Source of the DNA: an archaeon
Lineage (GTDB): Archaea; Nanobdellota; Nanobdellia; Woesearchaeales; GW2011-AR9
DNA: 32,936 nucleotides
Direction of reading: 5' to 3'
Assembly: GCA_020053615.1 (NCBI GenBank)
Contig: JAGVMW010000025.1
Location: 1 to 32,936, forward strand
The notes under the pieces are model-generated. The model was not told the origin of the DNA. It did no database searches and saw nothing but the letters and a program-made list of their open reading frames with translations. Numbering within the stretch: the first letter of the stretch is position 1; each line of letters starts with the position of its first letter. Below are positions 2,832-23,969 of this stretch, piece after piece. Made by a program: the position numbers and the translations under genes.

Positions 2832-2832
2832 A

Positions 2833-3288: not shown

Positions 3289-3300
3289 ATTAAAAAAAAC

Positions 3301-3432: not shown

Positions 3433-3466
3433 AAAAAAAACAAAAACCAAACAGGAGGGAAATAAA

Positions 3467-3865: not shown

Positions 3866-3891
3866 AATCTAATCACCGGAGGTGAATTAAC

Positions 3892-4986: not shown

Positions 4987-5015
4987 TTTGTTTTATTTTT
5001 ATTTGTTTTATTTTT
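4986..5015 (+). repeat. Perfect 15-nt tandem duplication (ATTTGTTTTATTTTT x2), T-rich, between two operon genes
   Basis: 4986-5000 and 5001-5015 are identical, then TTAAACC and the ATG at 5023. Oligo-T tracts are archaeal termination signals, so this could be an internal terminator/attenuator and/or a promoter for the AAA gene. Confidence 0.5.
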
Positions 5016-5022
5016 TTAAACC

Positions 5023-6534: not shown

Positions 6535-6536
6535 CC

Positions 6537-8147: not shown

Positions 8148-8154
8148 ACTAAAA

Positions 8155-8287
8155 GTACGTGCATAGCATCATAATGTCAAAATTCATTCAGAATATGCCT
8201 ACGAAGGTGACAGGGGGACTTGCCCCCTACGGGGATGTCGCCCCAACGATAACCCTCACCAGAATTTTGAAGATGCTATGCATGTAC
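8155..8287 (+). repeat. Palindromic structured element, copy C
   Basis: 16-bp outer stem GTACGTGCATAGCATC/GATGCTATGCATGTAC (one G:T), bulge ATAATG, and 9-bp stem TCAAAATTC/GAATTTTGA. Stem GGTGAC/GTCGCC (one T:G) surrounds the core AGGGGGACTTGCCCCCTACGGGGAT. Confidence 0.85.
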
Positions 8288-8322
8288 TACAACAACAATA
8301 AAAATATTGGAGGTGTTTAATC

Positions 8323-9894
8323 ATGATGAACACACAAACGGATGCATATATGTATTGGGTAGATAACAAAAGATGCTTAGAAGAAATTATTGATAGAAGA
8401 GAAGCATTAACCAAACCAGAACAACTAACTGCAGATAATTTAATTCGAGCACAATCCGGATTAAGAAGATTACAAGACGAGATGATTCATCTGCAAAAAA
8501 CCTGCGGAGGAGATTTGCCGCCGTCAAGCTACCGAGAGATTAAAGAAGCTAATCACGCTTTTGAAGAGATTGTAGAAGCCCTGTCTCAGAAACGAAAAGA
8601 ATATTTATCATTAGCTCCACAAATTAGTTTAGATATTAAAATATGGCACAATTCTACTGAAGCAAATAAAGAAGGAGAACTAACCTCGGTCATGGAGCTT
8701 TGTTCCAAGTATCGTTGCGCTACTGATTTTGACCCCGAATTCTTCCCGGGAAAAACACAATTAAATCAGTTCTATGCAGATCTATCTGAACTAACATTCA
8801 TAGCCTCTCCACGAGTGGCAGAAGAATACCTTCAAAGATATACCCAATTAACCACAATTGATGAAGTGATTAAATTTAAACAGGGATTTGAGCAGAATTT
8901 TTGGCAGAAAGCAGATAGAATAAAACATAAGTTAAATCAAAAGTATGAAAGAAAAATAAGTAAAGAAGAACAGGCTATATTAAATGTGCATCCTTTAGGA
9001 ACTTTTACTTTGATTAAAGAGGACATCAAAAATATTACAGAAAAAACAGCAGAATTCCAAAAGACGAAGAAAGAGTTATGGCAGGGAATTACTGCGCTTC
9101 GTGATGACTTGGTGTATCTTAGCAATAATGTTCCGGCACTAAACCAGATTTATGTAAATAAAGTATTAACTCCGATTAACCCAATTAAGTCAGTGGCAGA
9201 TTACTTATTGTTAAAGAAAGATTCAGCTGATTACCAGAAGTCAATTGGGAATTTGAAAAAGCTTAAAGAAGAAAAGAAGAAAGAACTTACCAAATTAGCT
9301 AAAACTGAATGTTCTGAATTAACCCAGACTATAACGACAGATATGAATTCACAGGATTATACCAAATTTGAGAAATATACTAACAGAATAATTGAACTTA
9401 AAGATTACTGCAAACAATTAGGAGAAGAGGAAACTTATGCAGTGCTACAGACTCAGTTCGACCGCATTGATAGGATAAATAAATATGTAGCTGCAATCCA
9501 ACCGAAAGAAAAGCTAGAGTTAAGGATAACTGTAGGAGAATATGAAACTAAACCTACAACTAAAATACTTGATATCGAGCCAAAAAAAGTGGATGCTGCA
9601 TCCAATAAAGATCTTCCTTGGATGCCAATTGTCACCGAGCAGGATTTAACCGTAGCCGGGTTTAGATATTCCCGGTATGCCCAAGACAATTCGCTGAAAC
9701 AATTGTGCCTGCAGATTGCTGGAGTGAACGAGAAAGGAGAATATTCCTGTACTACACTTAAAGATAGAGTAAGCAGTATAGACAAACAAAAGTTTAGGAT
9801 AGTTGGTGAAAAATTGTTAGGTGATGATGAAATTATTTACAGTGCGCTGAAGGAAGGGATTGGGAAGTGTGGATACCAGCGAAAAGTAGTTTAA
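8323..9894 (+). CDS. Hypothetical large helical protein (last gene of the + operon)
   Basis: SD GGAGGTG lies 7 nt upstream of ATGATG. The protein is long, charged and helical with no TM segment. I recognise no family. Confidence 0.7.
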   Translation: MMNTQTDAYMYWVDNKRCLEEIIDRREALTKPEQLTADNLIRAQSGLRRLQDEMIHLQKTCGGDLPPSSYREIKEANHAFEEIVEALSQKRKEYLSLAPQISLDIKIWHNSTEANKEGELTSVMELCSKYRCATDFDPEFFPGKTQLNQFYADLSELTFIASPRVAEEYLQRYTQLTTIDEVIKFKQGFEQNFWQKADRIKHKLNQKYERKISKEEQAILNVHPLGTFTLIKEDIKNITEKTAEFQKTKKELWQGITALRDDLVYLSNNVPALNQIYVNKVLTPINPIKSVADYLLLKKDSADYQKSIGNLKKLKEEKKKELTKLAKTECSELTQTITTDMNSQDYTKFEKYTNRIIELKDYCKQLGEEETYAVLQTQFDRIDRINKYVAAIQPKEKLELRITVGEYETKPTTKILDIEPKKVDAASNKDLPWMPIVTEQDLTVAGFRYSRYAQDNSLKQLCLQIAGVNEKGEYSCTTLKDRVSSIDKQKFRIVGEKLLGDDEIIYSALKEGIGKCGYQRKVV

Positions 9895-9897
9895 ATA

Positions 9898-12321
9898 TTA
9901 AGTGTTGGTGGTATAAGTATAATTAATCTGACATGATTCAGGAACAGAATTACTTCTAGCTTTATTTCCAGCGGAATCCATTACATCTAATACATAGCAA
10001 TCATCTTTAAAAGGTCCGACAGAATAAGTAGTATTAAAGCTCCTATCAATATCCCGCCATTCTTTTACAACTTCAGTTTTGTTATACAATTTTGCTATCA
10101 TTTCAGAAGATGTACTATTTCTTATTTCTGCTTTAAGAATTAAGTTGTTTTTACTACACACCCATTCACTTCTACAGATATATTCTTCAAAAATAACAGC
10201 ACAGTTTAAAAAATCATCCCCATATACTGAAATTTCTACCGGCCCAGCGCACTCAACATTTACATCAGTCAGGCCATTGCATTGGTAATCTTCAAATACC
10301 ATATTAACTTCTTGACCAGTATAGTTTACTTTACATTTAATGTGGTCTCGGTCATACTCACAATGGAAATTTCCAGAATTGGGGACATAAAGATTTGCTC
10401 CACCGCCTTCGCAAAGAAGAACATTTTTATCAGACCAACAGTTGCCATTGCCACAAATCGAATCTAAGCTGACATATAATTTATTAGTAATATGGCTTTC
10501 AGCTTTAACTCGCACCATTATCTCTCCTAAATCCTCAACGTTTTTTGTAGTGCGAAGTTCTTCTTTGCAGTCAATTAACTGTCCTGCAAATTCCGGAGGT
10601 TTTATTTTGATACTTTCAGTATTTATACTTCCTCTTTTATCCATCGCAGTAAGGGTGTAAGTTAAACCATAAGGACAATCTACACTAAAACTAACATCTA
10701 GTTTTGCTCCAAGATTCTTATCCCATTCATAGACCAAATGATTATCTTTATACAATCTTACATCAGATAACCCAATATCTTCATCTCCACTTTCAACAAC
10801 ACCCTCTATCCTATAAACTTTTCCACTATCTGAACGTCGTTCATTAATTTTTATCTCAGGAGGTGCATCAGCATGCAATTTATATTCACAGCCGTCGCTG
10901 GTAGCAATGAAATATCCAGCAGCTGCTGCCATTGCTACAATAGAAGTAGCCGCTAAACCGATGCGAAGTGCTTTTTTGAAAGTATTTTTTTCCACAGGTT
11001 TCATCTTAACCTCGCTAACCATCGAAGTAAACAAATCGATTGCTTGGGGTTTAGAACAATATTCTTTAGATGAAGCAATAATCACCTCATCAGACAAAGC
11101 TTTGGTGGAAGATACTTTTGACAAAATACAACTATAAGCAGATTCCATCTCTAATCCAGGAGGTAAACTTAATTTACATTCTTTTAAATATTGTGGGAGC
11201 GTTATTGGATTTAACGTTGGTGGATTAACTTTATACTCTTGTAGTGGAGCCAGACCTAAAGATTTAAGTTCTTGAGCAATTGCACCAGCAGATTGATAAC
11301 GTTCATCTTTAGAAGATGTTCCTTTAATGATTATATCTGTTAACGTCTGATAGTGATTACCATCACATACAGAGGGATATTTTTCCTTGAGTTTATTGAT
11401 AATAGATTTGCTCAATTCACTCTTATCACCGCCACTTTTTTCTTTAAGCGGTTCTACCAATTTTCCAGTTAACATCAAACACAACAAGTTAATAAGATTA
11501 TAAGTATCATATGATGGTTCAATACTCTGACCATAATCAATATCAAATTTAGGAGGATGATATACCTTATTAACGGTTATTCCTGATTGAGTGGTGTAAT
11601 AACTGCCAGAGATTCCACTAACCGAAACCATACTATATAATTTACTTGCTTTCATATTCCTTTCTTTAGCTAACCCAAAATCATTTAGTAATACTCTCTT
11701 AACCCCTTTTTCATCTTTATATATCAGTACATTGCTTGGAGAAATATCAACCAAGATAATCCCATCTTTTAATATTCCACCATTATCATTTATTCTTCGA
11801 GCATTATGAAATAAGTCAGCTTGCTCGCACATTTCGGTGGCAATATGCACTACTTCTTCTAGTGATTCTATTTTTTTGTTTGCCGTTACTCTCAATTTCC
11901 TAAGCAGTGGATTGTTCTTTTCCATGTCTAAAGTTATATCTTTAAATTCATCATCCACCCCTAATAAACTGTGAAGAGTATTTTCAGAGGTGAAAGCCAA
12001 TCCAGGGATATATTTAAACAAAAGACATAATGCTCCATTAACTCGACCATAATTCTCATACAAAGTTAAATTAGTGTACTGAGGAAAATAAGTCTTGAGA
12101 AATTCCAGTACCAAAATTTCATTCTTTTGCACCTCTCTACTGGCCACCCCAGTACAATTACTAGAATGCCTGAAGATCTTAGCAAACATTTTTTCAGGAG
12201 TTTCACCTTTCTCAGAATAATCACAAATATACCGAGCACTCATAGTTCCTTTACTATGCTTTTCTATATTACTAAGCACTCCATCATTGTTTAGCTGATA
12301 AGTTAAGTTTTGATCAGTCAT
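9898..12321 (-). CDS. Receptor-type Ser/Thr protein kinase: cytoplasmic Hanks-type kinase, one TM helix, Cys-rich Ig-like ectodomain
   Basis: Catalytic loop ILVDISPSNVLI, DFG motif LLNDFGLAKE, and subdomain IX-like SYDTYNLINLLCLMLTG. TM helix IGLAATSIVAMAAAAGYFIA. The ectodomain has repeated modules ending MDKRGS.../MDSAGNKARS and many Cys residues. Confidence 0.8.
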   Translation of the reverse strand: MTDQNLTYQLNNDGVLSNIEKHSKGTMSARYICDYSEKGETPEKMFAKIFRHSSNCTGVASREVQKNEILVLEFLKTYFPQYTNLTLYENYGRVNGALCLLFKYIPGLAFTSENTLHSLLGVDDEFKDITLDMEKNNPLLRKLRVTANKKIESLEEVVHIATEMCEQADLFHNARRINDNGGILKDGIILVDISPSNVLIYKDEKGVKRVLLNDFGLAKERNMKASKLYSMVSVSGISGSYYTTQSGITVNKVYHPPKFDIDYGQSIEPSYDTYNLINLLCLMLTGKLVEPLKEKSGGDKSELSKSIINKLKEKYPSVCDGNHYQTLTDIIIKGTSSKDERYQSAGAIAQELKSLGLAPLQEYKVNPPTLNPITLPQYLKECKLSLPPGLEMESAYSCILSKVSSTKALSDEVIIASSKEYCSKPQAIDLFTSMVSEVKMKPVEKNTFKKALRIGLAATSIVAMAAAAGYFIATSDGCEYKLHADAPPEIKINERRSDSGKVYRIEGVVESGDEDIGLSDVRLYKDNHLVYEWDKNLGAKLDVSFSVDCPYGLTYTLTAMDKRGSINTESIKIKPPEFAGQLIDCKEELRTTKNVEDLGEIMVRVKAESHITNKLYVSLDSICGNGNCWSDKNVLLCEGGGANLYVPNSGNFHCEYDRDHIKCKVNYTGQEVNMVFEDYQCNGLTDVNVECAGPVEISVYGDDFLNCAVIFEEYICRSEWVCSKNNLILKAEIRNSTSSEMIAKLYNKTEVVKEWRDIDRSFNTTYSVGPFKDDCYVLDVMDSAGNKARSNSVPESCQINYTYTTNT

Positions 12322-12357
12322 GGTATTTTATGTTTAGTTTGTTAGTTTTTATTTAGT

Positions 12358-13698
12358 TTATTCTGTTTTTGGCTCACTTTCTGATTTGTCTGGAGTTATT
12401 GCTGTTGGTTCAGTGATAACTTCAGTTGTAGTACCACTTGACCCTATCGGTACGGCTGCTGATTCATCTGGTACTACAGCTGGTTTAGTACCGTTTGACT
12501 TTGGTGACACACCTTTCTGCGTAGAGGGTAATTTAGTTTTGACTCCAACTGATTTAGACTTATTACCATAGAGGTCAGTACATTCTACTTTAGTATAAAT
12601 TACATTTCGGTATAATGGACAAGTGTTCAAAGGCAATTTATAATCATTCATAATATTATCCAAAGATTTAGTGACAAAAGGAGAATTTGGACAGGTGATA
12701 TTACAGGTAACTGGTTCTGTTTCTCCATTTATCTCAATAGTATAATACTTTGAACTTATTTTAGCTTTAGTTACTTCATTTATTTTACTTAATGATACTT
12801 TGGGAGGAGTCTTATCTACATCCGTAGGAATTACTGCATGCATATTCTCTACTGCTAGTTTAGCTGTATCGGATGTAGCTTCATTTACATTAGCACCAGT
12901 TGCCTCAGCTGCTGCTGGCTGACTTAGTGGCACTAGTTTAGTAATCTCTGATATTAATGATAGTTTATTTGAGATGTAACTTTTAACTTCTCTAAGACAC
13001 TTGCTTATCTTGTCACTCTTCGGTATTTCCGGAGGACGATAAGTAGAAGCAATCTCTGATTCTGCCACTCGCCTTTGATGTACATGAACCTCGGGTGCTT
13101 TATACCATATCAACAGCCCTATTCCAGCACAAACTAAACCGCTTAATAAGCCAGATCCAAGCATAGTTGCATAATTTGGTCTCCTCAACAACGTATTAAT
13201 CTCATAGTTTGCCACTTTTTCCTCTACCTGAGTCCTATCATCTTTAGTTTCATCAGATGTAGATGAAGAGTGCAACTTTAAAATATCTTTAAGCAACTTA
13301 GTATTCGCACCGACTTCATTCGATAATTGTTCTAATGTAACAGGAGCAGTGATTTGATTATAAGCGTCATAGCTTTCTCTTACCAGTCTAAGCACTGCAT
13401 TGGAATCGGTTTTCTCACCTAAGCCTAAGACATCAACAAGACTGGAATAAAATTGTAAATACTGTCCTAAATATTGTTGACTCACTTTAATCTTAGCAGA
13501 TAACTCATCATAAGTAGCCGTTTTAGGCAGCCCAACATGAATTTTCAGTTCGGTTAATTTATCTTCTAACGAATGAATATATGCATCTCTATCATCAATA
13601 CTTTTTGACAGCTTACCCACTACACTACCTAAAGCAGAAAATCGTTCATCTAATGATAGTGGAACTTCACTTTCAGTTGTGTCAGTTGTAGCGTTCAT
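12358..13698 (-). CDS. Coiled-coil / single-TM protein with an extracellular Ig-like module
   Basis: I prefer the MNATT start (ATG at 13698), 1 nt after the upstream stop. It has an N-terminal module LSLDERFSALGSVVGKLSKSIDDRDAYIHSLE, a TM helix LLSGLVCAGIGLLIWY, and an ectodomain ending TDLYGNKSKS. Confidence 0.7.
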   Translation of the reverse strand: MNATTDTTESEVPLSLDERFSALGSVVGKLSKSIDDRDAYIHSLEDKLTELKIHVGLPKTATYDELSAKIKVSQQYLGQYLQFYSSLVDVLGLGEKTDSNAVLRLVRESYDAYNQITAPVTLEQLSNEVGANTKLLKDILKLHSSSTSDETKDDRTQVEEKVANYEINTLLRRPNYATMLGSGLLSGLVCAGIGLLIWYKAPEVHVHQRRVAESEIASTYRPPEIPKSDKISKCLREVKSYISNKLSLISEITKLVPLSQPAAAEATGANVNEATSDTAKLAVENMHAVIPTDVDKTPPKVSLSKINEVTKAKISSKYYTIEINGETEPVTCNITCPNSPFVTKSLDNIMNDYKLPLNTCPLYRNVIYTKVECTDLYGNKSKSVGVKTKLPSTQKGVSPKSNGTKPAVVPDESAAVPIGSSGTTTEVITEPTAITPDKSESEPKTE

Positions 13699-13699
13699 G

Positions 13700-14317
13700 T
13701 TACTTAGGATTTTTCTTAAATCGCCCCCATACTTTAACTCCAAAATTATATAGTGGATCTTCCTCTTCTTCAAATATTTCTGCTACTTTAACGCTTGCTT
13801 TATATAATCTGGAGTATATACTACTCATTCCACCACCAACATAATTGAATGCCAACTTTAATTTAGGGGAATACCATTTTGACTTTCTTTTTTCCTCGTG
13901 ATAATCTGGAGATAATACCTCAATTAAGTAATCTAATTTTTTGTCCAGTAAAGGAAGATATCCTTTAATTTCATTAATTTTAGTAGATAACTCTTTTAGG
14001 GGAATACTTTTCTTAATTTCTTCTAAAAAAGGTATTATTTTAGTTAACATCTCTTCCAGAGAGGTCAAAGAGTGATATTTTTCATCAATACGTGTTAGTT
14101 TATCATCAATTTTAGTATAAAGTTCCAATGATATAGCACTATGGATATCTTTTGCAGCTTTTAATTGGCCTTCTAAATTATGGATATATACATTTCTATC
14201 ATCAATGCATTTTGACAGCTTTCCCACTACACTGCCTAAAGCTGAAAATCGTTCTTCCAAAGATAATTTAATTGCACTTTCCGAGGCATCAGTTTTTTCG
14301 TCCATTTTTATTACCAT
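13700..14317 (-). CDS. Coiled-coil protein sharing the N-terminal module of the downstream gene
   Basis: LSLEERFSALGSVVGKLSKCIDDRNVYIHNLE is followed by a helical region. I chose the start at 14317 (TAA-N-ATG spacing to the PP2C stop). 14305 and 14341 are alternatives. Confidence 0.6.
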   Translation of the reverse strand: MVIKMDEKTDASESAIKLSLEERFSALGSVVGKLSKCIDDRNVYIHNLEGQLKAAKDIHSAISLELYTKIDDKLTRIDEKYHSLTSLEEMLTKIIPFLEEIKKSIPLKELSTKINEIKGYLPLLDKKLDYLIEVLSPDYHEEKRKSKWYSPKLKLAFNYVGGGMSSIYSRLYKASVKVAEIFEEEEDPLYNFGVKVWGRFKKNPK

Positions 14318-14318
14318 T

Positions 14319-15815
14319 TTATTTTTCCAAAAAATCTCCAATCCATCTCAATACTTCTTTTGGACCATTGGACCACGCTCTTGTTTCTTGTTTTTCTGGG
14401 GAATATTCTTTATTGGATAACTGTTGATTAATTTTTTCAATAACCCCATCATTATAACCTCCTAAAGTTAATGCAATCTTCTCGTTGGGAGTTATTTCAG
14501 TAGGTTCAAATTCATCTTTTTTTTTTACGGATTCATCACTATCTATTCCTAAAGCATAATGAGAAAATTTAATCAGATATTTCTTCATAGAATTGTATAA
14601 TCCTTTATTTTTCTCAAGTTTAACAATCTCTTCTTCTAACTCAGCTATTTTTTTAATTAACCCATCTTTCTCTACTTCATAATCGATTATTCCACCATGC
14701 AATCTATCAATCTCTTCATCTTTGAGTTTAATATTAGCATCATATGCTGCTTTATCTTGTCTTCTTCCTTCTTTTTCATCAGCTAGCCGTCCCTCTAAAC
14801 TACTATTGGCTACTTCAAGACGAGCTATAGCTGCTTCTTTGATTCCTACTTCTCGTTGATATCCATCACGTTGCCTTTCTGTCTCTGGAAGCGTAACTTC
14901 AACGACTGTTTTTAATTCACCTAATCTTTGGTTGATAGAATCTTCCATATCAACCAATATCATTGTGGTATCGTCGTATTTAATGTTACCATCTATCCTG
15001 CTTACTAATTCTTCACTTTCTCTCAGGACATAAGCATTAAGTATCCTTTCAATCATCTGTGCTTTAGTATCACTCGGGTTAAGCCTGAAATCATCTATAC
15101 CTCCTACAATTCGCTTTATTTTGTCTTCAACCAACTCGTCTAATCGGCCATATGGACGGCGAATTCTTTCAACAAACAGGTCTAATACTTTTGACATATC
15201 ATGATACTTTCCGTGAGCACCGGCCCAGATTTGTGCTATTTCTGCATCAGTTACACGACTCATCAATCCATCAGTAGTAAGTAGTATTTTTGAAGGCTTA
15301 TCCAGTGAGATATCATATTCCACTACTGCTTGATCGATTCTACTATCGATATCCAAACGGTTATTTGGGATATGACCTTGACCAATATAATTCTTGGGCC
15401 CATCATAATCTCCCTCATCTATAGTTATCTGTTTTAACACATTATTATATCCAAAATAAACTCTGCTGTCACCCATGTGGGCCAAATACAACTTACTTGA
15501 AGAGAGGAGAACCGTATCGATGGTAGTGTGCGTTGTTCCAATTTTCTCCAGTGCACGATGGGCATTAAATAAAGCTTCTTTCAATGCTTTTTCAAGGGGG
15601 TAATCTGGAGCTTGTGATAAAGTTTTAGTCAAATAATTTCGGATTACATTTACACTAATATTACTGGCAACTGCTCCGTGATGACCGCTTAATCCATCAC
15701 CAATTATAAATAAGTTCCAATCTGTGCCATCTTTACTTTTAAAGCTCGAAGTACAATACGAATCTTCTTTTTCATCGTGCAATCGATTAATTTCTTCTTT
15801 TACATATACTTTCAT
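14319..15815 (-). CDS. PP2C-family Ser/Thr phosphatase fused to a C-terminal coiled coil
   Basis: PP2C motifs IIGDGLSGHHGAVAS, AHMGDSRVYF, LLTTDGLMSRVTDAEI and YDDTTMILVD, followed by about 200 aa of heptad-rich sequence (RQRDGYQREVGIKEAAIARLEVANSSLEGRLADEKE...). Confidence 0.85.
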   Translation of the reverse strand: MKVYVKEEINRLHDEKEDSYCTSSFKSKDGTDWNLFIIGDGLSGHHGAVASNISVNVIRNYLTKTLSQAPDYPLEKALKEALFNAHRALEKIGTTHTTIDTVLLSSSKLYLAHMGDSRVYFGYNNVLKQITIDEGDYDGPKNYIGQGHIPNNRLDIDSRIDQAVVEYDISLDKPSKILLTTDGLMSRVTDAEIAQIWAGAHGKYHDMSKVLDLFVERIRRPYGRLDELVEDKIKRIVGGIDDFRLNPSDTKAQMIERILNAYVLRESEELVSRIDGNIKYDDTTMILVDMEDSINQRLGELKTVVEVTLPETERQRDGYQREVGIKEAAIARLEVANSSLEGRLADEKEGRRQDKAAYDANIKLKDEEIDRLHGGIIDYEVEKDGLIKKIAELEEEIVKLEKNKGLYNSMKKYLIKFSHYALGIDSDESVKKKDEFEPTEITPNEKIALTLGGYNDGVIEKINQQLSNKEYSPEKQETRAWSNGPKEVLRWIGDFLEK

Positions 15816-15817
15816 AT

Positions 15818-17023
15818 TTAACCTCGATAATTATCCCAGCAAGATATTCGGTGCAGTGTTTCGTATATCTTTAACACAGGGTCAAATTTATGTTCAAGTA
15901 TAGATAGATAATCCTCTTTCTTCTCTTCTTCTGAAGTGATTATGGATTGCTGAGGGACTACTACGCTCGCGCAACGCATACGAAAATATAAATTACGCAA
16001 AGTAAATTGTAAGAAACCATTATGTTCTTTAAGTCCATAAATATGATTATCTTTATATGATTCTTCTACTGCTTTCCAATCAGAAATAAACTGGATTCGG
16101 TTCTTACGGGATAATTTTGGATAATTATTCGCTTGGTCTACTTCATACACATCCAACAATCCATCATTTAGCCCCATCAAGACATACATCTTGCCATCAA
16201 TGGAAGTAACTAATGATGATGTTGCTTCGGAAGGAAGATATTCCTCACGTTTCTCGTCAAGTAAAAAGTCAGAGGTGTCATCTACCCCATAACACTTCTC
16301 TTTCATACTGCCGTTTCTTTCGTCAATAATCATATAACCATCCTTATCATCAGTGCATACTGTGACTCCATTTGCAGTTGATACAGATAAGATTTTTCCT
16401 TTCAGTTGTTGTCCTTCCTTAGAAGGAAACGATCGTCCTCGGTTAAGAGTGTTTAATAGAATTGTTTCTAAGCGATTGAAACAAGGGACCCATATTTTTT
16501 CTACCTCACCATGATTATAATAAATTGGAGTAGAAGTAGGAACAAATATGTCTCTAATTGGTTCAAGTCCATCTAAATTACCATTTGGAGAATGTAATAA
16601 GCTACCAACATAGACCTCTTGACTCTCTTTATCTTCCGAAGGAGCAGAAACAGAAACAAACCAGCCTGTGCTAGGAGTGAAGAGCATTCCAACGTGAGTG
16701 GTAGGTTGATTTACAAACAAATCTGTATTTAATTTGTCTTCATTCTTAAAAAAGTCAATTAATCCTTTCTTTTGAATTATCTCACCTTTACGATTTACAA
16801 TAAAAAGACCATCTCTAGTTGCAGCATAAACCTCATTACCTCTGAACTTAATCTCACGAGGAGTTTGTCCGCCACGTGCATTAACTACCACTTCGTCTAA
16901 TCCCAACCTTTTCCATAGTTCTACCTTTCTATCCAAAGAACCCAAAGAACAAGCATATATCCCTTTCTCTAAGTCGTTACTATCCGACCCCACACCGAAA
17001 ACTAAATCTACATTATCATTCAT
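15818..17023 (-). CDS. Hypothetical beta-rich repeat protein (possible beta-propeller)
   Basis: The ATG overlaps the upstream TGA (ATGA). It has recurring blade-like motifs (VYAATRDGLFIVN, GVTVCTDDKDGYMIID, MYVLMGLNDGLLDVYEV). The fold call is tentative. Confidence 0.65.
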   Translation of the reverse strand: MNDNVDLVFGVGSDSNDLEKGIYACSLGSLDRKVELWKRLGLDEVVVNARGGQTPREIKFRGNEVYAATRDGLFIVNRKGEIIQKKGLIDFFKNEDKLNTDLFVNQPTTHVGMLFTPSTGWFVSVSAPSEDKESQEVYVGSLLHSPNGNLDGLEPIRDIFVPTSTPIYYNHGEVEKIWVPCFNRLETILLNTLNRGRSFPSKEGQQLKGKILSVSTANGVTVCTDDKDGYMIIDERNGSMKEKCYGVDDTSDFLLDEKREEYLPSEATSSLVTSIDGKMYVLMGLNDGLLDVYEVDQANNYPKLSRKNRIQFISDWKAVEESYKDNHIYGLKEHNGFLQFTLRNLYFRMRCASVVVPQQSIITSEEEKKEDYLSILEHKFDPVLKIYETLHRISCWDNYRG

Positions 17024-18897
17024 TTTGATTCACCTCGTTTGCCGCCTAAAGCCAGATACATTCGTGCTAAGAAAGGCGGTTTATTAGCAGCGGGGTTATA
17101 ATCATATCCATGTTTAGAAATGATCCTAATTTCTTCCTGGACAAGAGCGGATACATCCATTGGATTATCACTACTTACAACAGCTAAAGGGTCAAACCCA
17201 AAATAATTCTTACGTTTACGCGATGAAGCAAGACTCACTTTATTTGCATGAGCATGACATAACTTTGTTATTATCTCAAGTAGAAGTACTTTTGAATTCT
17301 GAGAAACTGGCGCAGGAGATTCAATCATCTCTTTAACTTTAGAATTAAACGAGAGCGATGAACCACTACGACTAAGGCGCTTATACTGACTGAATAACAT
17401 TGCTGCAAGATCTCCCTGATAATAAAAAGGATGACCTTCTTCAGTAGGTTCTTTCAAATCATTTTTAATACACTCAAGACTCTTTTCAAAAAGAACAAAT
17501 GCTGGCTCCCACTTTTTCTCATAGAAACAACATCTACCCAGTCCACGCAAAGCACTTGAATTATGGGCGTCTTTCTTCAAAACTGAAGCATAATACTCAA
17601 TTGCTTTTCTTAATTTAATGGCATCAATACATTCTGGGTTGATACTCTCTCGAAGATTAATCCCTCCCAAGAATAACCTCGCCTCAGTATTATCTGATTG
17701 TAATCCCAATACTGCTTTGTAATACTTTTCTTTGGCTATAAGCGTATTCGCTTCAGAACCGCTTCTCGCCAGGAATAAATTAGCTTCCACTTTAAACTCA
17801 GCTGGGCATTCCTTCTGTACCAACACTTTTTTATATTTGGTTTCAGCATCAGCAAGTTTATTTGCTTTAGCATCTAAACGGGCCAGCATAAGATTTGCTT
17901 CGGCATCTTCGGGGAAATCTTCAAAAATGTAGTTGTACCATTGAGCATAATCTCCTTTAATTTGGACGCAGACACGTGCTATTTTTCTGAGGGCTTCGCT
18001 TCTACGCCCACGTAATATTTTCTCCAATGCACTGTGCTCATTACTATTACTGCTTTTCAGGTTCTTTAGCTTAATCTCGGTTAGAACTGCAGAATAGAAA
18101 CGTTCAATAACACCGTCTTCCTTACATAAACCCTCAAGCATAGTATATGCTTCAATGGTCTCATCAAATATCTCAAAAACGTCCTTCACATAACCCACTC
18201 GCGGCTTTACCCTAAGCTCATACACGCTTTTAACCAAAGGTGGCAATAAATAGGACTTAATCCCATTATTTCCAGTAAGTATAGGATTAGCTAAGCACTT
18301 TTGCGCATACTTTAAAGTGTTATCCCAATCACTGTTTTTAAAATACAACAAAGTTAGCCATACTAGTGTATTAGGTTCATCAGTAATCTGTTCTAAACAT
18401 TTGATCTTAGTTTCAGGCTTTTCTGCTGCACCATGCTCAATGTAGAAAATGTTTTCTTTATTGAGCGCTTCACGTGCGAGATAGGAGTATTTTTGCTCTT
18501 TAGTAAGTAAGTTAAGAATCCAGCTGCTTTGAGTCAGGAAGCTAATGTCAACTGATACAGTTTTAGTGCCACCATAAGTAGATGGCTCTCTGATAGGCAT
18601 AGCGATCTTAACATGAGATTGGTCTAGCTCAAATCCCCTCCCTTTCTTATCAAAAAACGGATTTAACTTATTGCTGACTTTTTTGTACAACTCTTTTGTA
18701 TCAGGTATCGATTCAACTGCTGCTTCTAACAGAGAAATTCCTAAGTGAAAGAGGAATTCATTGTCATCCACTTGTTTAAGATTCCCTTGATCATCTTCTT
18801 CAACCAAATAATCTAAGCAGTGGTTTATTCTATCAGTTATAGTAGCATCTTTTGAGTTGATAAATCGTACAATTCTGTCTCTAGTGGATTCCGTCAT
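17020..18897 (-). CDS. TPR / alpha-solenoid repeat protein
   Basis: The C-terminal half has several TPR-like units (AEANLMLARLDAKANKLADAETKYKKVL; AKEKYYKAVLGLQSDNTEARLFLG; AIEYYASVLKKDAHNSSALRGLGRCCFYEKKWEPAFVLFEKSLE). SD GGTGA is upstream. Confidence 0.8.
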   Translation of the reverse strand: MTESTRDRIVRFINSKDATITDRINHCLDYLVEEDDQGNLKQVDDNEFLFHLGISLLEAAVESIPDTKELYKKVSNKLNPFFDKKGRGFELDQSHVKIAMPIREPSTYGGTKTVSVDISFLTQSSWILNLLTKEQKYSYLAREALNKENIFYIEHGAAEKPETKIKCLEQITDEPNTLVWLTLLYFKNSDWDNTLKYAQKCLANPILTGNNGIKSYLLPPLVKSVYELRVKPRVGYVKDVFEIFDETIEAYTMLEGLCKEDGVIERFYSAVLTEIKLKNLKSSNSNEHSALEKILRGRRSEALRKIARVCVQIKGDYAQWYNYIFEDFPEDAEANLMLARLDAKANKLADAETKYKKVLVQKECPAEFKVEANLFLARSGSEANTLIAKEKYYKAVLGLQSDNTEARLFLGGINLRESINPECIDAIKLRKAIEYYASVLKKDAHNSSALRGLGRCCFYEKKWEPAFVLFEKSLECIKNDLKEPTEEGHPFYYQGDLAAMLFSQYKRLSRSGSSLSFNSKVKEMIESPAPVSQNSKVLLLEIITKLCHAHANKVSLASSRKRKNYFGFDPLAVVSSDNPMDVSALVQEEIRIISKHGYDYNPAANKPPFLARMYLALGGKRGESK

Positions 18898-18917
18898 TAC
18901 TATTCATCACCAATTCT

Positions 18918-20606
18918 CTAGGAAGGTAGCAATTTTACTACTTTGTCCCATAAGCTAGTTGTAGTGATAATCTCATTACAACGCGTACGTACTTCAGCAT
19001 TAGACCATTTTAGCTGATGAGTCTTAATGAAATAATCAACAATCTCTTGGAATCTCCCCACATATACCTCTGATGGGCAATTCTTAGAAGCCATTGCTAA
19101 TGTTTTTAATTCTTCGTCACAGTTATATTGAATCAAAATTGATTCAATATTTTTTTTTCTGGTATCATTAGTAGTTATTTCTGTTTGGACATTATTTAAC
19201 TGTGTGGAATGTAGTTTAAAACTATCACGCGCACTTTGATAAGCGTTGAAAAGATCATCATCATCTAGATTATCTCCAGAGGTGCTAGCTGCTATTTTAG
19301 CTTTAGATTTTGCCATATTCAATCCAGTACTTATGTGTTCTTTTTGCTTCCGCAGTTTGCTTAGTTCTTTGACAAGCTTATCTTTTTCTGTTGAAGGCCC
19401 AATACTTTCTTTATTTTTCTGTTGAGCTTTATAATACACCTCAATCGTCGAAACAAGCACAAATTCTTTAAGACTGTCCTGCATCGCTTTCTCCTCATCA
19501 GCATGCATTACTCTACTACCATTCTGGTACATCTTTTCGTAGGAATGCTCAGCATCTTTATACATAGAATTAAAATCGGCGCTGGTAGAAAGGGGCATTT
19601 TAGGGGCAAATTCATTTCTAAATGCATCTACTGTTCTTAAAATTAAAAGTGAATTGTCCTGATTAACAACTAATCTTTGTTTTAATAAAGCTTTATTTGT
19701 ATTAAATTTGTTATCAATGCCCGCAAGTATATCAGAGATTGATGCAACTAATTCGCCATTATCATCATATGATTTAACGACTTCAGTAAAATAACTTGGA
19801 CTTCTAGTCTTCCCTCCCAAAAACCACCACAAGTAGCCTACCAATGCATTAATATCTTGTTTTTGAAAGTCAGTTCCTCCGCTTAAAAGATGTAGGTAAA
19901 GTATTTTATCCCGAGAACTTAATTCATTAAGATCACGAAAATTTGATAAAGACATAGATCCAACTTTCCCGCTGGGACTGGAGTCACATAATCTTATCGA
20001 GCCATAAATAAGCTTCTCTTCCAAGAGAGATACATTAATTTCATTTCCATTCTTAACCTCAGATAAGTCAAACCCGCACAAGATGTTAGTAGAAACTAAA
20101 TCGCCATGCCATCCCTGCTTTTTTTGTTTATGAAGTGCACCAATCCCTTCTAACAGGGTATACAACACTTTATATTCAAACGCTTTGATGGCATTTTGGC
20201 GTCCTTGTAATGGACCGATATATTCTCCGGACTCATTTTTATATTTTTGCAGAAATTCAACTACTGTCCTCAGATTGCTTCCACCATATTCCATGATGGA
20301 AACTGGATTTTCATGTGCTGCATTCTTCCCATTTTCTTCAGCCGATGCTATTATTATCTCCGCATTGCCATAATTAACTATCTGAACAAAATGCAACGGC
20401 CTGTTGCGATAAATCTGTTCAGCATCGCTTAAGAAGTCAATTTTAGCATCAGTAATACATTCTTTGGCGGCATAAATGGTACCATCCCCCGCCTTATCTT
20501 TAACTCCATAAGCAATTCCGGTAGTTCCTTTTCCAATTTCCTGCACGATTTCATATTCTTTAACTTTATCATCTAATAAACTCGTTAATTTTATTATATC
20601 GGTCAT
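18918..20606 (-). CDS. Protein-kinase-like protein with an atypical activation-loop motif, plus a C-terminal helical domain
   Basis: G-loop IGKGTTGIAYGV, beta3 Lys context IYAAKE, hinge MEYGG, and catalytic loop WHGDLVSTNIL. IRLCDSS stands where DFG is expected. I prefer the start at 20606 (TAA-A-ATG after the upstream stop); the track start is 20624. Confidence 0.7.
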   Translation of the reverse strand: MTDIIKLTSLLDDKVKEYEIVQEIGKGTTGIAYGVKDKAGDGTIYAAKECITDAKIDFLSDAEQIYRNRPLHFVQIVNYGNAEIIIASAEENGKNAAHENPVSIMEYGGSNLRTVVEFLQKYKNESGEYIGPLQGRQNAIKAFEYKVLYTLLEGIGALHKQKKQGWHGDLVSTNILCGFDLSEVKNGNEINVSLLEEKLIYGSIRLCDSSPSGKVGSMSLSNFRDLNELSSRDKILYLHLLSGGTDFQKQDINALVGYLWWFLGGKTRSPSYFTEVVKSYDDNGELVASISDILAGIDNKFNTNKALLKQRLVVNQDNSLLILRTVDAFRNEFAPKMPLSTSADFNSMYKDAEHSYEKMYQNGSRVMHADEEKAMQDSLKEFVLVSTIEVYYKAQQKNKESIGPSTEKDKLVKELSKLRKQKEHISTGLNMAKSKAKIAASTSGDNLDDDDLFNAYQSARDSFKLHSTQLNNVQTEITTNDTRKKNIESILIQYNCDEELKTLAMASKNCPSEVYVGRFQEIVDYFIKTHQLKWSNAEVRTRCNEIITTTSLWDKVVKLLPS

Positions 20607-20607
20607 T

Positions 20608-21723
20608 TTAATTTCCTCCCACATATATTTGTCTAAATTTTAAATTAGATTTATTACTATCTTCCAAAAGATTAACTATCTGGTTATCAATTATCAACCC
20701 AGATTTAGTCAGCAAAACAATATTCTTTTTGTGAGTACTGTTATTATACCAGAAATCAACTAAACCTTTATCAGAATAAGCTTTCTTCTGTTCTTTATCT
20801 TTAAACATAACTGATCCTATCCCGCCGTGTTCCAATTCTCCCATAAAAAACACTCCTTCCCTTCCCTCAAACTTTCCCCGGCACATTTTAGTTATACTTC
20901 TAAACTCTTTACCAGCATAAAATTCTTCTCTATTCCGATAAATCATCCCATTATCTATACCTGAAAAAACATTTCCATCATTATCTACTTCAATCACTTT
21001 AATATTTCCAGGAGCAGGTATCTCCACCTCTGAATCTACCTCTCCATTTAAAGTTAATACTTTTACTTTTCTATCTTGACCAAGATAAAGTTTATTTTTA
21101 TGCACTTTTAACGGAGCATGCTGCTGCTTATTTTGGTTTTCATACAAAGTATACTTTCTGAGGTCAGTAGAATCAATAGTTAAACTATCTTTCTCCACCA
21201 GCTCTTCTAGTGGAACTTTAACTACACCAATATCGGGATGAGAACCAACAATTGATACATCATAAACATCATCTCCACGCAGTACACCAACTCCATCAAA
21301 TCCTCGATTTGAATTCAGATTAACATTTACATATTTCCTCTCACGTCCATTCTCATCATCAGCCAGGTTAGTAATATCAATTCCGAAATCTGCACTCCTA
21401 TACCTGCTTTTCCCATAACCAGCAGCAGCATATTTCACTCCATCTACCACAAACGAAGTCATGCAGGAATAGTTTCTCCCGCTGAAAAGAGGCTCTTCTC
21501 TAAGTTTCCAGCTACTGTCTTTAACATCTTGATATACATGATAGATAGATTTGTCGGAAGAGATGAAGAGATCGTTCCATAAGTCTAAATCCACTCTAAC
21601 TTTCTTTTCTGACTTCACTGGGAAAGCCATCCCAGAATTAAACTTAGACAACTCATTGATTAAAGTAATGACTGACGTTTTTGCTTTCATAATTTCTTCT
21701 TGCATAAATTCAGAGACATTCAT
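20608..21723 (-). CDS. Hypothetical beta-rich repeat protein (possible beta-propeller)
   Basis: The ATG overlaps the upstream TGA (ATGA). It has repeated strand-turn motifs (VFSGIDNGMIYRN, VFFMGELEHGGIGSVMF, IVLLTKSGLIIDN). I recognise no family. Confidence 0.65.
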   Translation of the reverse strand: MNVSEFMQEEIMKAKTSVITLINELSKFNSGMAFPVKSEKKVRVDLDLWNDLFISSDKSIYHVYQDVKDSSWKLREEPLFSGRNYSCMTSFVVDGVKYAAAGYGKSRYRSADFGIDITNLADDENGRERKYVNVNLNSNRGFDGVGVLRGDDVYDVSIVGSHPDIGVVKVPLEELVEKDSLTIDSTDLRKYTLYENQNKQQHAPLKVHKNKLYLGQDRKVKVLTLNGEVDSEVEIPAPGNIKVIEVDNDGNVFSGIDNGMIYRNREEFYAGKEFRSITKMCRGKFEGREGVFFMGELEHGGIGSVMFKDKEQKKAYSDKGLVDFWYNNSTHKKNIVLLTKSGLIIDNQIVNLLEDSNKSNLKFRQIYVGGN

Positions 21724-22982
21724 ATCCGCACCACCAGAGGGAAAACATTGCCGTTTCTGAAACGATGCGGTCCAATCATAAATAATCCCTGCTTTTCATT
21801 TATCTGCTGAAAATATCCGTTGTACAACGGTCGATTATTAATAGAAGGATACACTGAATAAGCTTTATCAATACTTTTACAGGAATTTACAACTGCAGAT
21901 AAAAGTGAACGGCTTACCTCAGTATTAATGTCACCAATGCCTTTAACATAATTTATGACATTACGGTTGACTTCTCCGATGAGAAAATGATATACAGTTG
22001 CGAAGTCCAACTTAGAGAACAATTTCACAAAACTGGCTTCATCTACTTTCATTTCTGGATATATTATCGGAACATTAAGATCATTGTCATGAAAACCAGT
22101 CATTGATACTGCAAGTTGAATTTTATCCAAACCTTCTTTTGACTTAATATCGTTATACTTCTGATTTAGCACAGTTTCAATACGATCTAAATCACAAGAA
22201 GCCACTGCAACTAATTTTGGAATTATTTCTGGACATACTGCTGCCAACAAAGTGGAAGACACACACGGTTCATTAACTAGATTTAAGTATACTGGTAAAG
22301 GTTTGCCTTGTTCCACAATCTTTTTAATTTGTTCCCCCCGTTTGAGAAGCATAGGAACAGCAAAAGGAAGAAGTTTCAGGCACCTGAGCCCCAGATGATA
22401 ATTAATATCTATCCCAGCAACGATTCTCAATGTTTCTAAAGATTGGTTCCAGTCTCTATTATAATCTTCTGGACTAAAAATAACTCTCCCTTCAGATGCA
22501 CCAGAAGAATATGAACGATAATCAACTCCGTAATTTTTTTCTTTCTTTGACCAAAAGTCATTTAATACCCTTGCTGACTCTTTTTTAATTAAATCAAATT
22601 CTTCTTTATTCCACGGGTGCATTCTTCTTCCTTCGTATTTGGGTTGGTGTATTCTAAATAGATTATCTGCTAACTTATCTAAAGTGGGAGGAATTGAAGG
22701 CATAGAAGCATCAACCACCACTTCGGAAGCCATAAATGTTTCAAAGTCAGGTTCCACAGACACATCCACATTTAAAGACTTAAATTTTTGATAAATTTTT
22801 GGAAAGTATTTACTTTTCCTAAACGTTTCTTCGTTTTTATACCCGTAATTATAAAAGCAAACCTCATCAACACAACTCAAAAAAGCCTCACTTTCAGGAG
22901 GAAGATGACTATCTGCAAGATAATCGCAGAATTTGTCGATTAAACGACCTTTCCCAAATATCCCTAAAGTTTTTCTACCCAT
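21720..22982 (-). CDS. Hypothetical protein with an N-terminal Rossmann-like glycine motif (faint LDH/MDH or GH4-like resemblance)
   Basis: It is the first gene of the - operon. Motifs are LGIFGKGRLI near the N-terminus, then VYLNLVNEPCVSSTLLAAV and GFHDNDLNVPI. The assignment is weak. SD-like GGTGG and TTTAAATATAA (23013-23024, - strand) lie upstream. Confidence 0.6.
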   Translation of the reverse strand: MGRKTLGIFGKGRLIDKFCDYLADSHLPPESEAFLSCVDEVCFYNYGYKNEETFRKSKYFPKIYQKFKSLNVDVSVEPDFETFMASEVVVDASMPSIPPTLDKLADNLFRIHQPKYEGRRMHPWNKEEFDLIKKESARVLNDFWSKKEKNYGVDYRSYSSGASEGRVIFSPEDYNRDWNQSLETLRIVAGIDINYHLGLRCLKLLPFAVPMLLKRGEQIKKIVEQGKPLPVYLNLVNEPCVSSTLLAAVCPEIIPKLVAVASCDLDRIETVLNQKYNDIKSKEGLDKIQLAVSMTGFHDNDLNVPIIYPEMKVDEASFVKLFSKLDFATVYHFLIGEVNRNVINYVKGIGDINTEVSRSLLSAVVNSCKSIDKAYSVYPSINNRPLYNGYFQQINEKQGLFMIGPHRFRNGNVFPLVVRI

Positions 22983-23175
22983 ACCCCACCAATATTAATC
23001 GTTAACAAACACTTATATTTAAAGCTTGTTATCTAATTAAAGTAATTAAACACATTGGCTATCTAAAAGTGAACAACAATATTATCGCCTCGCTTTATGC
23101 AATGAACACTTTCCTACAAAAAGCAATGTAGTAACTGAAGATACAACATTAATTAAAGAAGATTAAACTAATTGT

Positions 23176-23225: not shown

Positions 23226-23969
23226 ATGAACGTAATGAAAGAAGAAATTCTTACTGGATTGGGAATGGCTCTCAATGAGGCACGCGTCTATCTTTCCCTT
23301 ACTGAAACTGGATTAGCCACCGCAACTAAGATTGCGGATCACAGTGGAATTCATCGGGTAAATGTTTATGATGCTGTAAACAAGTTAAAAGAGAAAGGAC
23401 TGGTAGGAGAAGTAACTCATGAAGGAAAAAAATGCTATGTAGCTGCGCCACCCACAGCATTACAGAACATCCTTAAAGAAAAAGAGATTCAACTTAATAA
23501 AATCATTCATGAATTAAACCTGTGCACACAATTAAGCCAAAAACAGGATGTACAAATATATGAAGGATATGATTTTATTAGAAATATGTTTCTTCATTTT
23601 TTAGAATTAAAAGGCAATATTTATGCCTTCAGTGTACCTAAATTTGTGATAGACAAAGTGGGAAAATATTTTCAAGAAGTGATTCACAAACGCAGAGCGG
23701 AACAAAAGCAGATGATGTATCACATTTATAGTAAAGAAGCAATTGATAGAATTAAATATCTTAATACACTCCCTTATACTGAAGCAAAATATCTAGAACA
23801 AGAAGATTATAATGTAACTAACATCATCTGCAATGACGAAGTAGCTTTATGCGTCTTTTACAACAACGAAGAAAAAAAACCGATGATTATAATGATTAAA
23901 AACAAACAAGTTGCCGACGCTTATATCAATCATTTCCAAGTGTTATGGGAAAAAGCCAAGAAACCGTAA
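23226..23969 (+). CDS. TrmB-family transcriptional regulator
   Basis: The N-terminal wHTH LTGLGMALNEARVYLSLTETGLATATKIADHSGIHRVNVYDAVNKLKEKGLV is typical of TrmB. The ATG at 23226 is preceded by AAGAGGT. The track ORF begins at 23172. Confidence 0.8.
   Translation: MNVMKEEILTGLGMALNEARVYLSLTETGLATATKIADHSGIHRVNVYDAVNKLKEKGLVGEVTHEGKKCYVAAPPTALQNILKEKEIQLNKIIHELNLCTQLSQKQDVQIYEGYDFIRNMFLHFLELKGNIYAFSVPKFVIDKVGKYFQEVIHKRRAEQKQMMYHIYSKEAIDRIKYLNTLPYTEAKYLEQEDYNVTNIICNDEVALCVFYNNEEKKPMIIMIKNKQVADAYINHFQVLWEKAKKP

Follow-up and report, generated by a model that had tools for sequence, protein, structure and literature searches.

The window, i.e. the whole analyzed stretch of 32,936 nt (contig JAGVMW010000025.1), contains at positions 9898–22982 nine compactly arranged genes on the minus strand, further referred to as g1 to g9 in the order from the 5' end. 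Based on sequence comparison, we tentatively propose that they form a clade-specific, membrane-associated Ser/Thr phospho-signalling operon, accompanied by a divergently oriented gene of a TrmB-type regulator with which it would share a palindromic putative operator. We rate the operon as one of the Ser/Thr kinase/phosphatase signalling kind, the novelty of which lies in several protein families and in an unusual component resembling lactate dehydrogenase (LDH). The operon appears to be specific to the Woesearchaeota/Nanoarchaeota (DPANN archaea).

Gene order and its conservation

The features are listed in Table 1. An earlier note on this DNA had described nine minus-strand open reading frames (ORFs) separated by gaps of at most 36 nt; the coordinates proved to be exactly as claimed, and inspection of the sequence at all eight junctions bore out the junction types. 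The g1/g2 and g4/g5 junctions are ATGA overlaps. The g2/g3 junction reads TAA-A-ATG with the g3 start at ATG 20606 and becomes a 17-nt overlap with the start at ATG 20624. The g6/g7 and g7/g8 junctions have the form TAA-N-ATG with a 1-nt gap each, and the remaining gaps equal 20 nt (g3/g4), 2 nt (g5/g6) and 36 nt (g8/g9). Shine-Dalgarno-like GGTG/GAGGT strings precede g1, g2, g4, g5 and g6.

Table 1. Genes of the operon, the adjacent regulator gene and putative cis elements (positions in the window).
Feature	Positions	Strand	Description
g1	21720–22982	-	420 aa; predicted divergent LDH/MDH/GH4-like Rossmann protein with an insertion of ~100 aa
g2	20608–21723	-	371 aa; predicted beta-propeller
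g3	18918–20624	-	562–568 aa; probable cytosolic Hanks-type Ser/Thr kinase, atypical activation segment, C-terminal helical/coiled region
g4	17020–18897	-	625 aa; TPR/helical-repeat protein
g5	15818–17023	-	401 aa; predicted beta-propeller
g6	14319–15815	-	498 aa; PPM/PP2C Ser/Thr phosphatase with a C-terminal coiled-coil extension
g7	13700–14317	-	205 aa; small soluble coiled-coil protein
g8	12358–13698	-	446 aa; single-pass membrane protein
g9	9898–12321	-	807 aa; receptor Ser/Thr kinase
TrmB-family winged helix-turn-helix regulator	23226–23969	+	247 aa; alternative TTG start at 23172; divergent from the operon
Palindromic operator-like site GTTGTAT-N8-AC[AT]ACA	23127–23147	-	lies 144 nt before the ATG of g1 and 78 nt before that of the TrmB-type gene
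Candidate g1 promoter, TATA-like AACAAGCTTTAAATATAAG	23012–23030	-	ends 29 nt upstream of the g1 ATG

Further loci were reached via homologues of the PP2C phosphatase g6 and of g1 and g5, and three matches of the g1+g2 profile led to more. An exhaustive search of 1.84 billion proteins with the g1+g2 hidden Markov model (HMM) yielded 63 representative clusters. Scanning with the g1 profile gave two loci in genome contigs and one (1.7 kb) in metagenome contigs. An exact-sequence look-up of the window g6 retrieved no match on record.

According to the HMM-based synteny table, the recurring order is as follows: the divergent TrmB-type gene, an optional gene of the DAO family, g1, g2, g3, g4 (optional), g5, g6, genes of small coiled-coil/transmembrane proteins, and g9. 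It is kept in ten non-redundant loci, that is, the window and nine others; besides the window, the loci showing it are L001, L003, L006, L009 (partially), L011, L015, L017 (partially), L019, L020 and L021/L022. Thus, in a gene-neighbourhood check the nine-gene set, with lineage variations, travels together in related archaeal loci. The junctions in other loci are similarly tight or overlapping, with conserved overlaps of start and stop codons. Since both the order and such junctions recur, the arrangement is not due to chance.

The identity between the window and distant loci is 20–35% for the operon proteins and 45–55% for the TrmB-type protein, and the outer flanks differ: Elp3 is found in the window; RNA cyclase, EF-1beta and an amino-acid permease in L019 and L021; and beta-lactamase-like genes in L006 and L008. 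A fortuitous inherited synteny of unrelated genes would agree with the origin of all loci from one broad lineage (DPANN) and with the fact that some of the downstream convergent genes are syntenic as well. However, the unit formed by the TrmB-type gene and the operon persists while the outer flanks vary, the start/stop overlaps are conserved, fusions of g1 and g2 recur, and the putative operator described below is conserved. Given the low identity, the differing flanks, the tight junctions elsewhere and the g1-g2 fusions, the arrangement is more than inherited synteny; we regard this explanation as very improbable, and chance synteny as effectively excluded. The same order at 20–35% identity, differing flanks, fusions and conserved putative operator uphold the suggestion of the earlier note that the genes form a dedicated module rather than a collection of scattered signalling genes.

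Comparison with the close relatives L001 and L003 shows 40–77% identity for the operon proteins, whereas the flanking proteins are 97–98% (TrmB-type), 85–91% (Elp3) and 84–88% (AAA ATPase) identical. As 40–77% stands against 84–98%, the operon evolves faster than its neighbours. The divergence is strongest in g3, g4, g7, g8 and g9.

Lineage variations concern both the composition and the order. Homologues of g4 were detected in L001, L003, L006, L015 and L017; the gene is absent from, and so dispensable in, L011. In the Hainich groundwater lineage the PP2C lacks the coiled-coil tail (388 aa; L009 618–1784 / L008 7871–9037) and is encoded on the far side of the TrmB-type gene rather than after g5. 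In L001, the closest relative, an additional gene (253 aa; 13181–13942) separates g8 from g9; it is absent from the window and L003.

The diphthine synthase of the window (29953–30711; TIGR00522, E 1.5e-94) falls into a 90%-identity cluster with MBI4980304.1 of Candidatus Woesearchaeota archaeon, and the proteins from the L019 flanks are labelled Nanoarchaeota archaeon; hence the host is a DPANN archaeon. The label 'Methanosarcinales' of contig CAZIUU010000001.1 (L012/L003) was not adopted and is probably wrong, given that its genes are 50–98% identical to those of the window.

Two kinases and a phosphatase

The phosphatase is the most readily recognized catalytic component. The g6 protein matches Pfam PP2C_2 (E 6.4e-7; 29.6 bits at a cut-off of 24) and the NCBIfam Stp1/IreP model (E 2e-21), so its earlier identification as a PP2C stands. 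The metal-binding residues D18, D40-G41, G115-D116, D182-G183 and D281-D282 are invariant in ten orthologues. The coiled coil, said in the earlier note to span about 200 aa, is shorter: it takes ~115 aa (roughly residues 300–415) and is followed by a non-coiled tail. The coiled-coil tail varies among the orthologues.

The g9 protein consists of an N-terminal cytosolic Hanks-type kinase domain, one transmembrane segment (residues 454–474) and a Cys-rich ectodomain of ~330 aa; with 24 Cys residues, it is indeed a receptor kinase with a Cys-rich ectodomain, as had been described. The match to Pfam Pkinase has E 8.9e-4 and 19.2 bits at a cut-off of 31.7, and the orthologues from L006, L020 and L021 have unmarked precomputed Pkinase matches. 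The VAIK Lys, the catalytic-loop Asp and Asn, and D214-x-G216, which characterize Hanks-type kinases (eukaryotic protein kinases, ePK), are all present; K48, D192, N197, D214, G216, Y254-P257, D272 and R341 are invariant in five orthologues. The size of the ectodomain ranges from none in L006, where a separate 700-aa gene is present, to ~700 aa in L017.

The g3 protein matches Pfam Pkinase only at E 0.045. The profile of its family matches StkP, CDK8 and other kinases at E 1.5e-11, in the region from the Gly loop to the catalytic loop only. H167, D169, L170, N174 and D208 are invariant in seven orthologues. The earlier note considered this protein, which has IRLCDSS in place of DFG, pseudokinase-like. 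Yet this segment retains the metal-binding Asp (D208), and what is replaced is the FG part (CDSS, TDFM, VDYE in different orthologues). The match to Hanks kinases together with the preservation of H167, D169, N174 and D208 in seven orthologues indicates that g3 is probably not a pseudokinase; judging from the sequence, an active atypical kinase is more likely.

The conserved catalytic residues of g3, g9 and g6 support the roles of writers and eraser of phosphorylation that we propose for them below. The same enzymatic core, a pair of Hanks kinases that includes a single-pass receptor and one PP2C per operon, would also suit a controller of the envelope, growth or division, by analogy with the actinobacterial operon fhaA-fhaB-pstP-rodA-pbpA-pknA-pknB. 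The operon is present in every lineage sampled, and murein-related genes lie nearby (PBP/beta-lactamase-like in L008 and L006, Peptidase_M74 at 31575–32750 in the window), which would fit such a function. On the other hand, there is no FHA, RodA/FtsW or penicillin-binding protein (PBP) inside the operon and no division gene adjacent to it, and the likeness is architectural only. We consider an envelope controller of this sort unlikely.

TrmB-type regulator and the putative operator

The protein encoded upstream of g1 has an N-terminal TrmB winged helix-turn-helix domain (Pfam TrmB PF01978, E 8.5e-15; NCBIfam TrmB/TrmBL models match as well). Its gene is located directly upstream of the operon and divergently in L001, L003, L006, L009, L015, L019, L020 and L021. 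Profile scans (Pfam, NCBIfam) of this protein, which is short at 247 aa, match the helix-turn-helix domain only.

Comparison of the regions between the TrmB-type gene and the operon in different loci revealed the palindrome GTTGTAT-N8-AC[AT]ACA. Within the window it matches exactly only at 23127–23147; allowing one mismatch, the expected number of matches is still as low as 0.04. Each intergenic region of this kind examined holds one or two exact copies, and L014/L015 have copies with one mismatch. The orientation of the palindrome relative to the operon is the same in all loci with the intergenic region. No exact copies were found outside these regions in 238 kb of loci. The distance to the first gene depends on the composition of the operon: in four loci beginning with the DAO gene the proximal palindrome is situated 34–36 nt upstream of the first ATG, and in loci lacking this gene it is situated 142–186 nt upstream of g1, which in the window clade places it 78 nt before the ATG of the TrmB-type gene. 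It is natural to take the palindrome as a candidate operator for a dimer of the adjacent TrmB-type protein.

A candidate promoter of g1 was found between the palindrome and the gene (Table 1). This TATA-like element is identical in L001 and L003, where it also ends 29 nt before g1, the consensus being AACAAG[CT]TTTAAATA[TC]AAG, and distant L021/L022 carry it as AACAAGTTTTAAATACAAG, ending 34 nt upstream. Its promoter role is putative.

A copy of the palindrome with one mismatch, TTTGTATACTTAATTACTACA, was observed at window positions 2129–2149 (+), 34 nt upstream of the ORF 2184–2831 (+), which encodes a 215-aa protein with an N-terminal transmembrane segment. The spacing is the same as that before the DAO gene elsewhere. 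The ORF starts a same-strand run that extends to 9894 and includes some tightly spaced genes; as the run begins behind this site, the gene set 2184–9894 may share the TrmB-type regulator. A similar site with one mismatch occurs in L009, 38 nt upstream of a 265-aa ORF. Homology of the 215-aa ORF to this operator-linked 265-aa ORF was rejected, the two sequences being unrelated.

The g1-g2 unit and the DAO gene

No Pfam or NCBIfam match was found for g1, and seven members of the family compared with Pfam at E≤5 gave only noise. The AlphaFold2 model built with five sequences has a predicted local distance difference test (pLDDT) score of 61 and a predicted TM-score (pTM) of 0.66; residues 1–260 are fair and the C-terminal 160 aa are unreliable. 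All 50 of the 50 matches listed by Foldseek in PDB are LDH, malate dehydrogenase (MDH) or 6-phospho-glucosidases of family GH4, with weak scores from this pLDDT-61 model (E 8e-4 to 8e-3, TM-score 0.27–0.36). In 22 homologues G7, G12, G198, R200, P206, P230, N237, E238, R267, G296, H298 and D299 are invariant, and D264 and G10 nearly so. The catalytic residues of LDH/MDH are Arg109, Asn140, Asp168, Arg171 and His195, and the g1 series R200...N237...D264-x-x-R267...H298 has the same order and spacing. The sole local alignment of g1 with Escherichia coli MDH given by hhalign pairs D264/R267/H298 with D150/R153/H177, though weakly and without significance (E 0.1). The insertion of ~100 aa precedes the Arg of the active-site loop, and strand beta-2 ends with Asn in the window clade, some relatives having Asp there. 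From the model and these residues, we assign g1 with moderate confidence as a very divergent LDH/MDH-like protein with a probably functional 2-hydroxyacid site.

The g2 protein is a beta-propeller by profile comparison: a profile built from 23 sequences picks up 3ott and 3va6, the Reg_prop propellers of two-component sensors, at E 1.3e-8, as well as designed 'Cake' propellers and a PQQ-propeller kinase. In a number of relatives g1 and g2 are fused into one polypeptide, e.g. P0014 (810 aa) and P0042 (804 aa); judging by length and the range of the matched profile, such fusions make up about 13 of the 63 representatives.

In L006, L011, L019 and L020 the operon starts with a gene of the DAO family (precomputed Pfam PF01266 and DAO HMM). 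The best NCBIfam match of this protein in L006, L019 and L020 is L-2-hydroxyglutarate oxidase (E 1e-59 to 1e-75; 200–252 bits, below the cut-off of 299), followed by type 2 glycerol-3-phosphate oxidase. This resemblance reinforces the 2-hydroxy-acid theme. The fold and conserved LDH-type residues of g1, together with the gene of an L-2-hydroxyglutarate-oxidase-like FAD enzyme at the beginning of four related loci, make doubtful the earlier statement that no metabolic gene is present.

The operon could then be mainly metabolic, with g1 and g2, ancestrally joined by the oxidase similar to LhgO, as a 2-hydroxyacid core, and the kinases and phosphatase as local regulators. The conserved residues and LDH/MDH/GH4-like fold of g1 speak for it, as does the LhgO-like gene in the first position with the operator-like site 34–36 nt upstream; besides, regulators of the TrmB family classically control carbon metabolism. 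Nevertheless, seven of the nine genes belong to signalling, scaffold or membrane categories, the window's lineage, L009, L015 and L021 have lost the oxidase but kept the remainder, the operon includes neither a transporter nor a further pathway enzyme, and g1 does not match canonical LDH/MDH profiles. A mainly metabolic operon thus seems to us rather improbable.

Putative scaffold proteins and membrane proteins

The identification of g4 as a TPR protein was confirmed by matches to Pfam TPR_19 (E 4.4e-9; 37 bits at a cut-off of 25) and TPR_16 (E 5e-8; 33.7 bits at a cut-off of 32.7). For g5, the AlphaFold2 model is all-beta (pLDDT 75, pTM 0.82) and has 739 Foldseek matches in PDB at E≤1e-3, the top ones being the propellers of WD40 proteins, BamB, Lis1 and Tako8 (E ~1e-8); by this model, g5 is a beta-propeller. 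Its sequence has two motifs, LPSEAT, which is largely conserved, and PHR at the C-terminus. A simple duplication as the origin of g2 and g5 was rejected, since homology between them is not detectable (hhalign probability 0.2).

The N-terminal module that the earlier note saw as common to g7 and g8 is 65% identical over 55 aa. Of the two proteins, described there as membrane coiled-coil ones, g8 has a transmembrane segment (residues 177–199), whereas g7 has no predicted one. The only matches of g7 to Pfam and NCBIfam are weak and of the coiled-coil type; the gene is present in L001 and is not a separate gene in L003. The g8 protein comprises an N-terminal cytosolic coiled coil, the single transmembrane segment and a Cys-containing Thr/Pro-rich ectodomain, and is 40–57% identical in close relatives. 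Proteins of g8-like architecture (coiled coil, transmembrane segment, Cys- or Pro-rich ectodomain) are encoded at the same position in L003, L006 and L017; sequence similarity to g8 was not detected for those from L006 and L017.

The ectodomains of g8 and g9 are fast-evolving and vary more than any other part. Such variability, along with divergence of the operon outpacing that of its flanks, is what would be expected of a conflict or host-interaction (adhesion/defence) system with surface proteins under diversifying selection. The kinase domains weakly match the PADLOC models of the PD-T4-6 kinase, and the window contains a KilA-N gene. However, the fixed place beside the TrmB-type gene and the constant order, seen in every locus examined, differ from a patchy defence island, PADLOC yields generic kinase-domain matches and no system, and the Pfam scan of the products revealed no nuclease or other effector domain. 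We therefore hold this explanation to be improbable, more so than the metabolic and envelope ones.

Proposed working of the operon

In the proposed phospho-signalling operon, g9 and g8 would expose their fast-evolving ectodomains and sense an external cue, probably surface- or host-derived. The receptor kinase g9 and the cytosolic kinase g3 would phosphorylate targets, and the PP2C g6 would erase the marks. The g2 and g5 propellers, the TPR protein g4 and the coiled coils of g3, g6, g7 and g8 may tether the complex at the membrane. The g1 protein would act together with g2, being joined in some lineages by the LhgO-like flavoenzyme, and this part could provide a metabolic input (2-oxo/2-hydroxy-acid or NAD(H)) or be a regulated output. 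The TrmB-type protein would bind the palindrome and set the transcription of the operon and of its own gene. For the part formed by g8 and g9, the description in the earlier note, a surface-sensing or membrane-organising machine, is plausible.

A more specific version, which would make the operon a signalling machine of a new class confined to these DPANN archaea, assumes that a catalytically intact LDH-like g1, bound or fused to its propeller, reads 2-oxo/2-hydroxy-acid or NAD(H) and gates the circuit of the receptor kinase, cytosolic kinase and PP2C on propeller, TPR and coiled-coil scaffolds at the membrane, coupling growth to host contact or metabolites. It appears to us a speculative and rather unlikely refinement.

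Several points weigh against the proposed signalling operon. In g3 the C-lobe is unrecognizable in profiles: neither APE nor subdomains IX–XI are discernible. The catalytic loop of g9 reads DISPSN, without the HRDLK Lys; the absence of this Lys occurs in other active kinases. No LDH/MDH was retrieved from PDB at E≤10 by hmmsearch, either with the 7-sequence or with the 22-sequence profile of g1, and the nucleotide loop of g1, GxxGxG/GxG, is atypical compared with the canonical GxGxxG. The assignment of g1 to LDH/MDH, of moderate confidence, combines a mediocre AlphaFold2 model, weak Foldseek scores and motif spacing. The TrmB-type protein, very highly conserved and short, in this respect like TrmBL2, may act globally instead of serving this operon alone. 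Finally, we infer the co-transcription of the nine genes as one operon and the assembly of their products into one complex from spacing, synteny and fusion alone, and the biological cue and the output are inferred as well.

The genomes of DPANN archaea are tiny, little is known of how their cells work, and most of these organisms can be cultured only together with a host. Here a 13-kb operon is retained across deeply diverged Woesearchaeota/Nanoarchaeota, with nine to eleven genes spent on Ser/Thr phospho-signalling. Such retention and gene investment suggest that the operon likely controls something central, e.g. host sensing, growth or the cell envelope. It is the first candidate multi-component Hanks-kinase/PP2C system in DPANN. 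It adds three protein families that have no Pfam model (g1, g2 and g5) and offers a testable instance of an LDH-like enzyme fold recruited to a signalling module, as well as a defined pair of a regulator and a putative operator that is amenable to in vitro work without culturing the organism.

Surroundings of the operon

The flanks of the window contain archaeal housekeeping genes, including those of a PUA-domain protein and a classical AAA ATPase (5023–6534); Elp3 is encoded at 24727–26559. Downstream of the operon, a tightly spaced set of plus-strand genes at 3467–9894 converges on g9, the stop codons being 3 nt apart. It encodes a small transmembrane protein, a 364-aa coiled-coil protein, the AAA ATPase, a P-loop NTPase (6537–8147) and a 523-aa coiled-coil protein. 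The P-loop NTPase has a weak DUF5906/MTBMA_p00010-like match and, as can be seen from its sequence, a probable C-terminal winged helix-turn-helix; its family is encoded beside the kinase end of the operon in both L006 and L017. The family of the 523-aa protein is also found there in L017 and, more weakly, in L006 via likeness to the L017 copy. The ORFs 2833–3288 and 3467–3865 (+) appear to encode paralogues: the first product and the L003 orthologue of the second share 40% identity over 104 aa.

Bacterial-type murein enzymes are represented by a Peptidase_M74 (MepA-like) endopeptidase in the window (31575–32750, +), and in related loci by a class A PBP (transglycosylase and transpeptidase) and beta-lactamase-like genes beside the cluster (L008 1070–3148 and 6713–7747; L006 1–153). 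A KilA-N domain protein (E 1e-21) is encoded at the window edge (133–972, +); this domain is typical of viruses and mobile elements. The 145-aa ORF 30720–31157 (-) weakly matches retropepsin-like aspartyl proteases (RVP, E 2.8e-4). Two overlapping genes at 26599–29734 (+) have no family match in Pfam and NCBIfam. They encode a 258-aa protein with an N-terminal transmembrane segment and a 791-aa protein, which is probably secreted or surface-exposed, given its signal-peptide-like N-terminus and Cys-rich C-terminus.

Comparison with known systems

The earlier note knew of no described archaeal system of this composition, and this holds: none was assigned by Pfam, NCBIfam, PADLOC or full-text literature searches, and the latter yielded no published description of the cluster. 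In public annotation the orthologues appear as 'hypothetical protein', 'protein kinase' or 'PP2C domain-containing'. A known defence system from PADLOC was rejected, the matches being limited to the PD-T4-6 kinase domain and weak coiled-coil ones. In the nine products Pfam matches at E≤0.1 include no FHA, FtsW/RodA or transpeptidase domain, and no vWA/TerY or FHA partner was found among their Pfam matches.

Bacterial Hanks-kinase/PP2C operons, such as the actinobacterial fhaA-fhaB-pstP-rodA-pbpA-pknA-pknB and stp1-stk1 (PrkC/PrpC) of Firmicutes, likewise combine a PP2C with Hanks kinases in one operon, one kinase being a single-pass receptor whose sensor domain is extracellular; translational coupling of the phosphatase and kinase genes is a further common feature. 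Unlike them, the operon described here has no FHA, PASTA or RodA/PBP, and contains two propellers, a TPR protein, coiled-coil/transmembrane proteins and an LDH-like protein. Further differences are the archaeal host, the TrmB-type regulator and the high divergence of the kinases (DISPSN in g9, CDSS in g3).

The TerY-P triad of the vWA protein TerY, a PP2C and a Ser/Thr kinase is similar in the conserved neighbourhood of a PP2C, a Hanks kinase and a non-catalytic partner. In contrast to it, no vWA/TerY domain was detected here, and the gene set of the operon is of another composition and far larger.

The predicted fold of g1 and the order and spacing of its Arg, Asn, Asp, Arg and His are like those of the LDH/MDH superfamily and GH4, NAD-dependent enzymes with a Rossmann fold. 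At the same time, g1 differs from them in that it shows no match at the profile level, has the ~100-aa insertion and an atypical Gly-rich loop, is paired or fused with a beta-propeller, and is embedded in a kinase operon.

As in the case of TrmB regulators with palindromic operators (the TGM motif of Thermococcales), a winged helix-turn-helix gene lies beside a conserved inverted repeat of the promoter region. Unlike these, the present protein has 247 aa and no recognizable sugar-binding domain, the operator-like sequence is different and its binding is predicted, and the target is a signalling operon and not genes of sugar transport or glycolysis.

In a 2016 review of archaeal phosphorylation, a single PPM from archaea is recorded as studied, and no cluster of this kind is mentioned (PMC5007285). 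A related archaeal case is the network regulating the Sulfolobus archaellum, with ArnA/ArnB, the kinases ArnC/ArnD and PP2A (PMC5007285, PMC12852372), which is also a Ser/Thr set of kinases, a phosphatase and non-catalytic partners. It differs in having FHA/vWA partners and a PPP-type phosphatase, its genes do not form one operon of this composition, and it lacks the families of g1, g2, g4, g5, g7 and g8, which accompany the kinases and the PP2C in the operon of the window.

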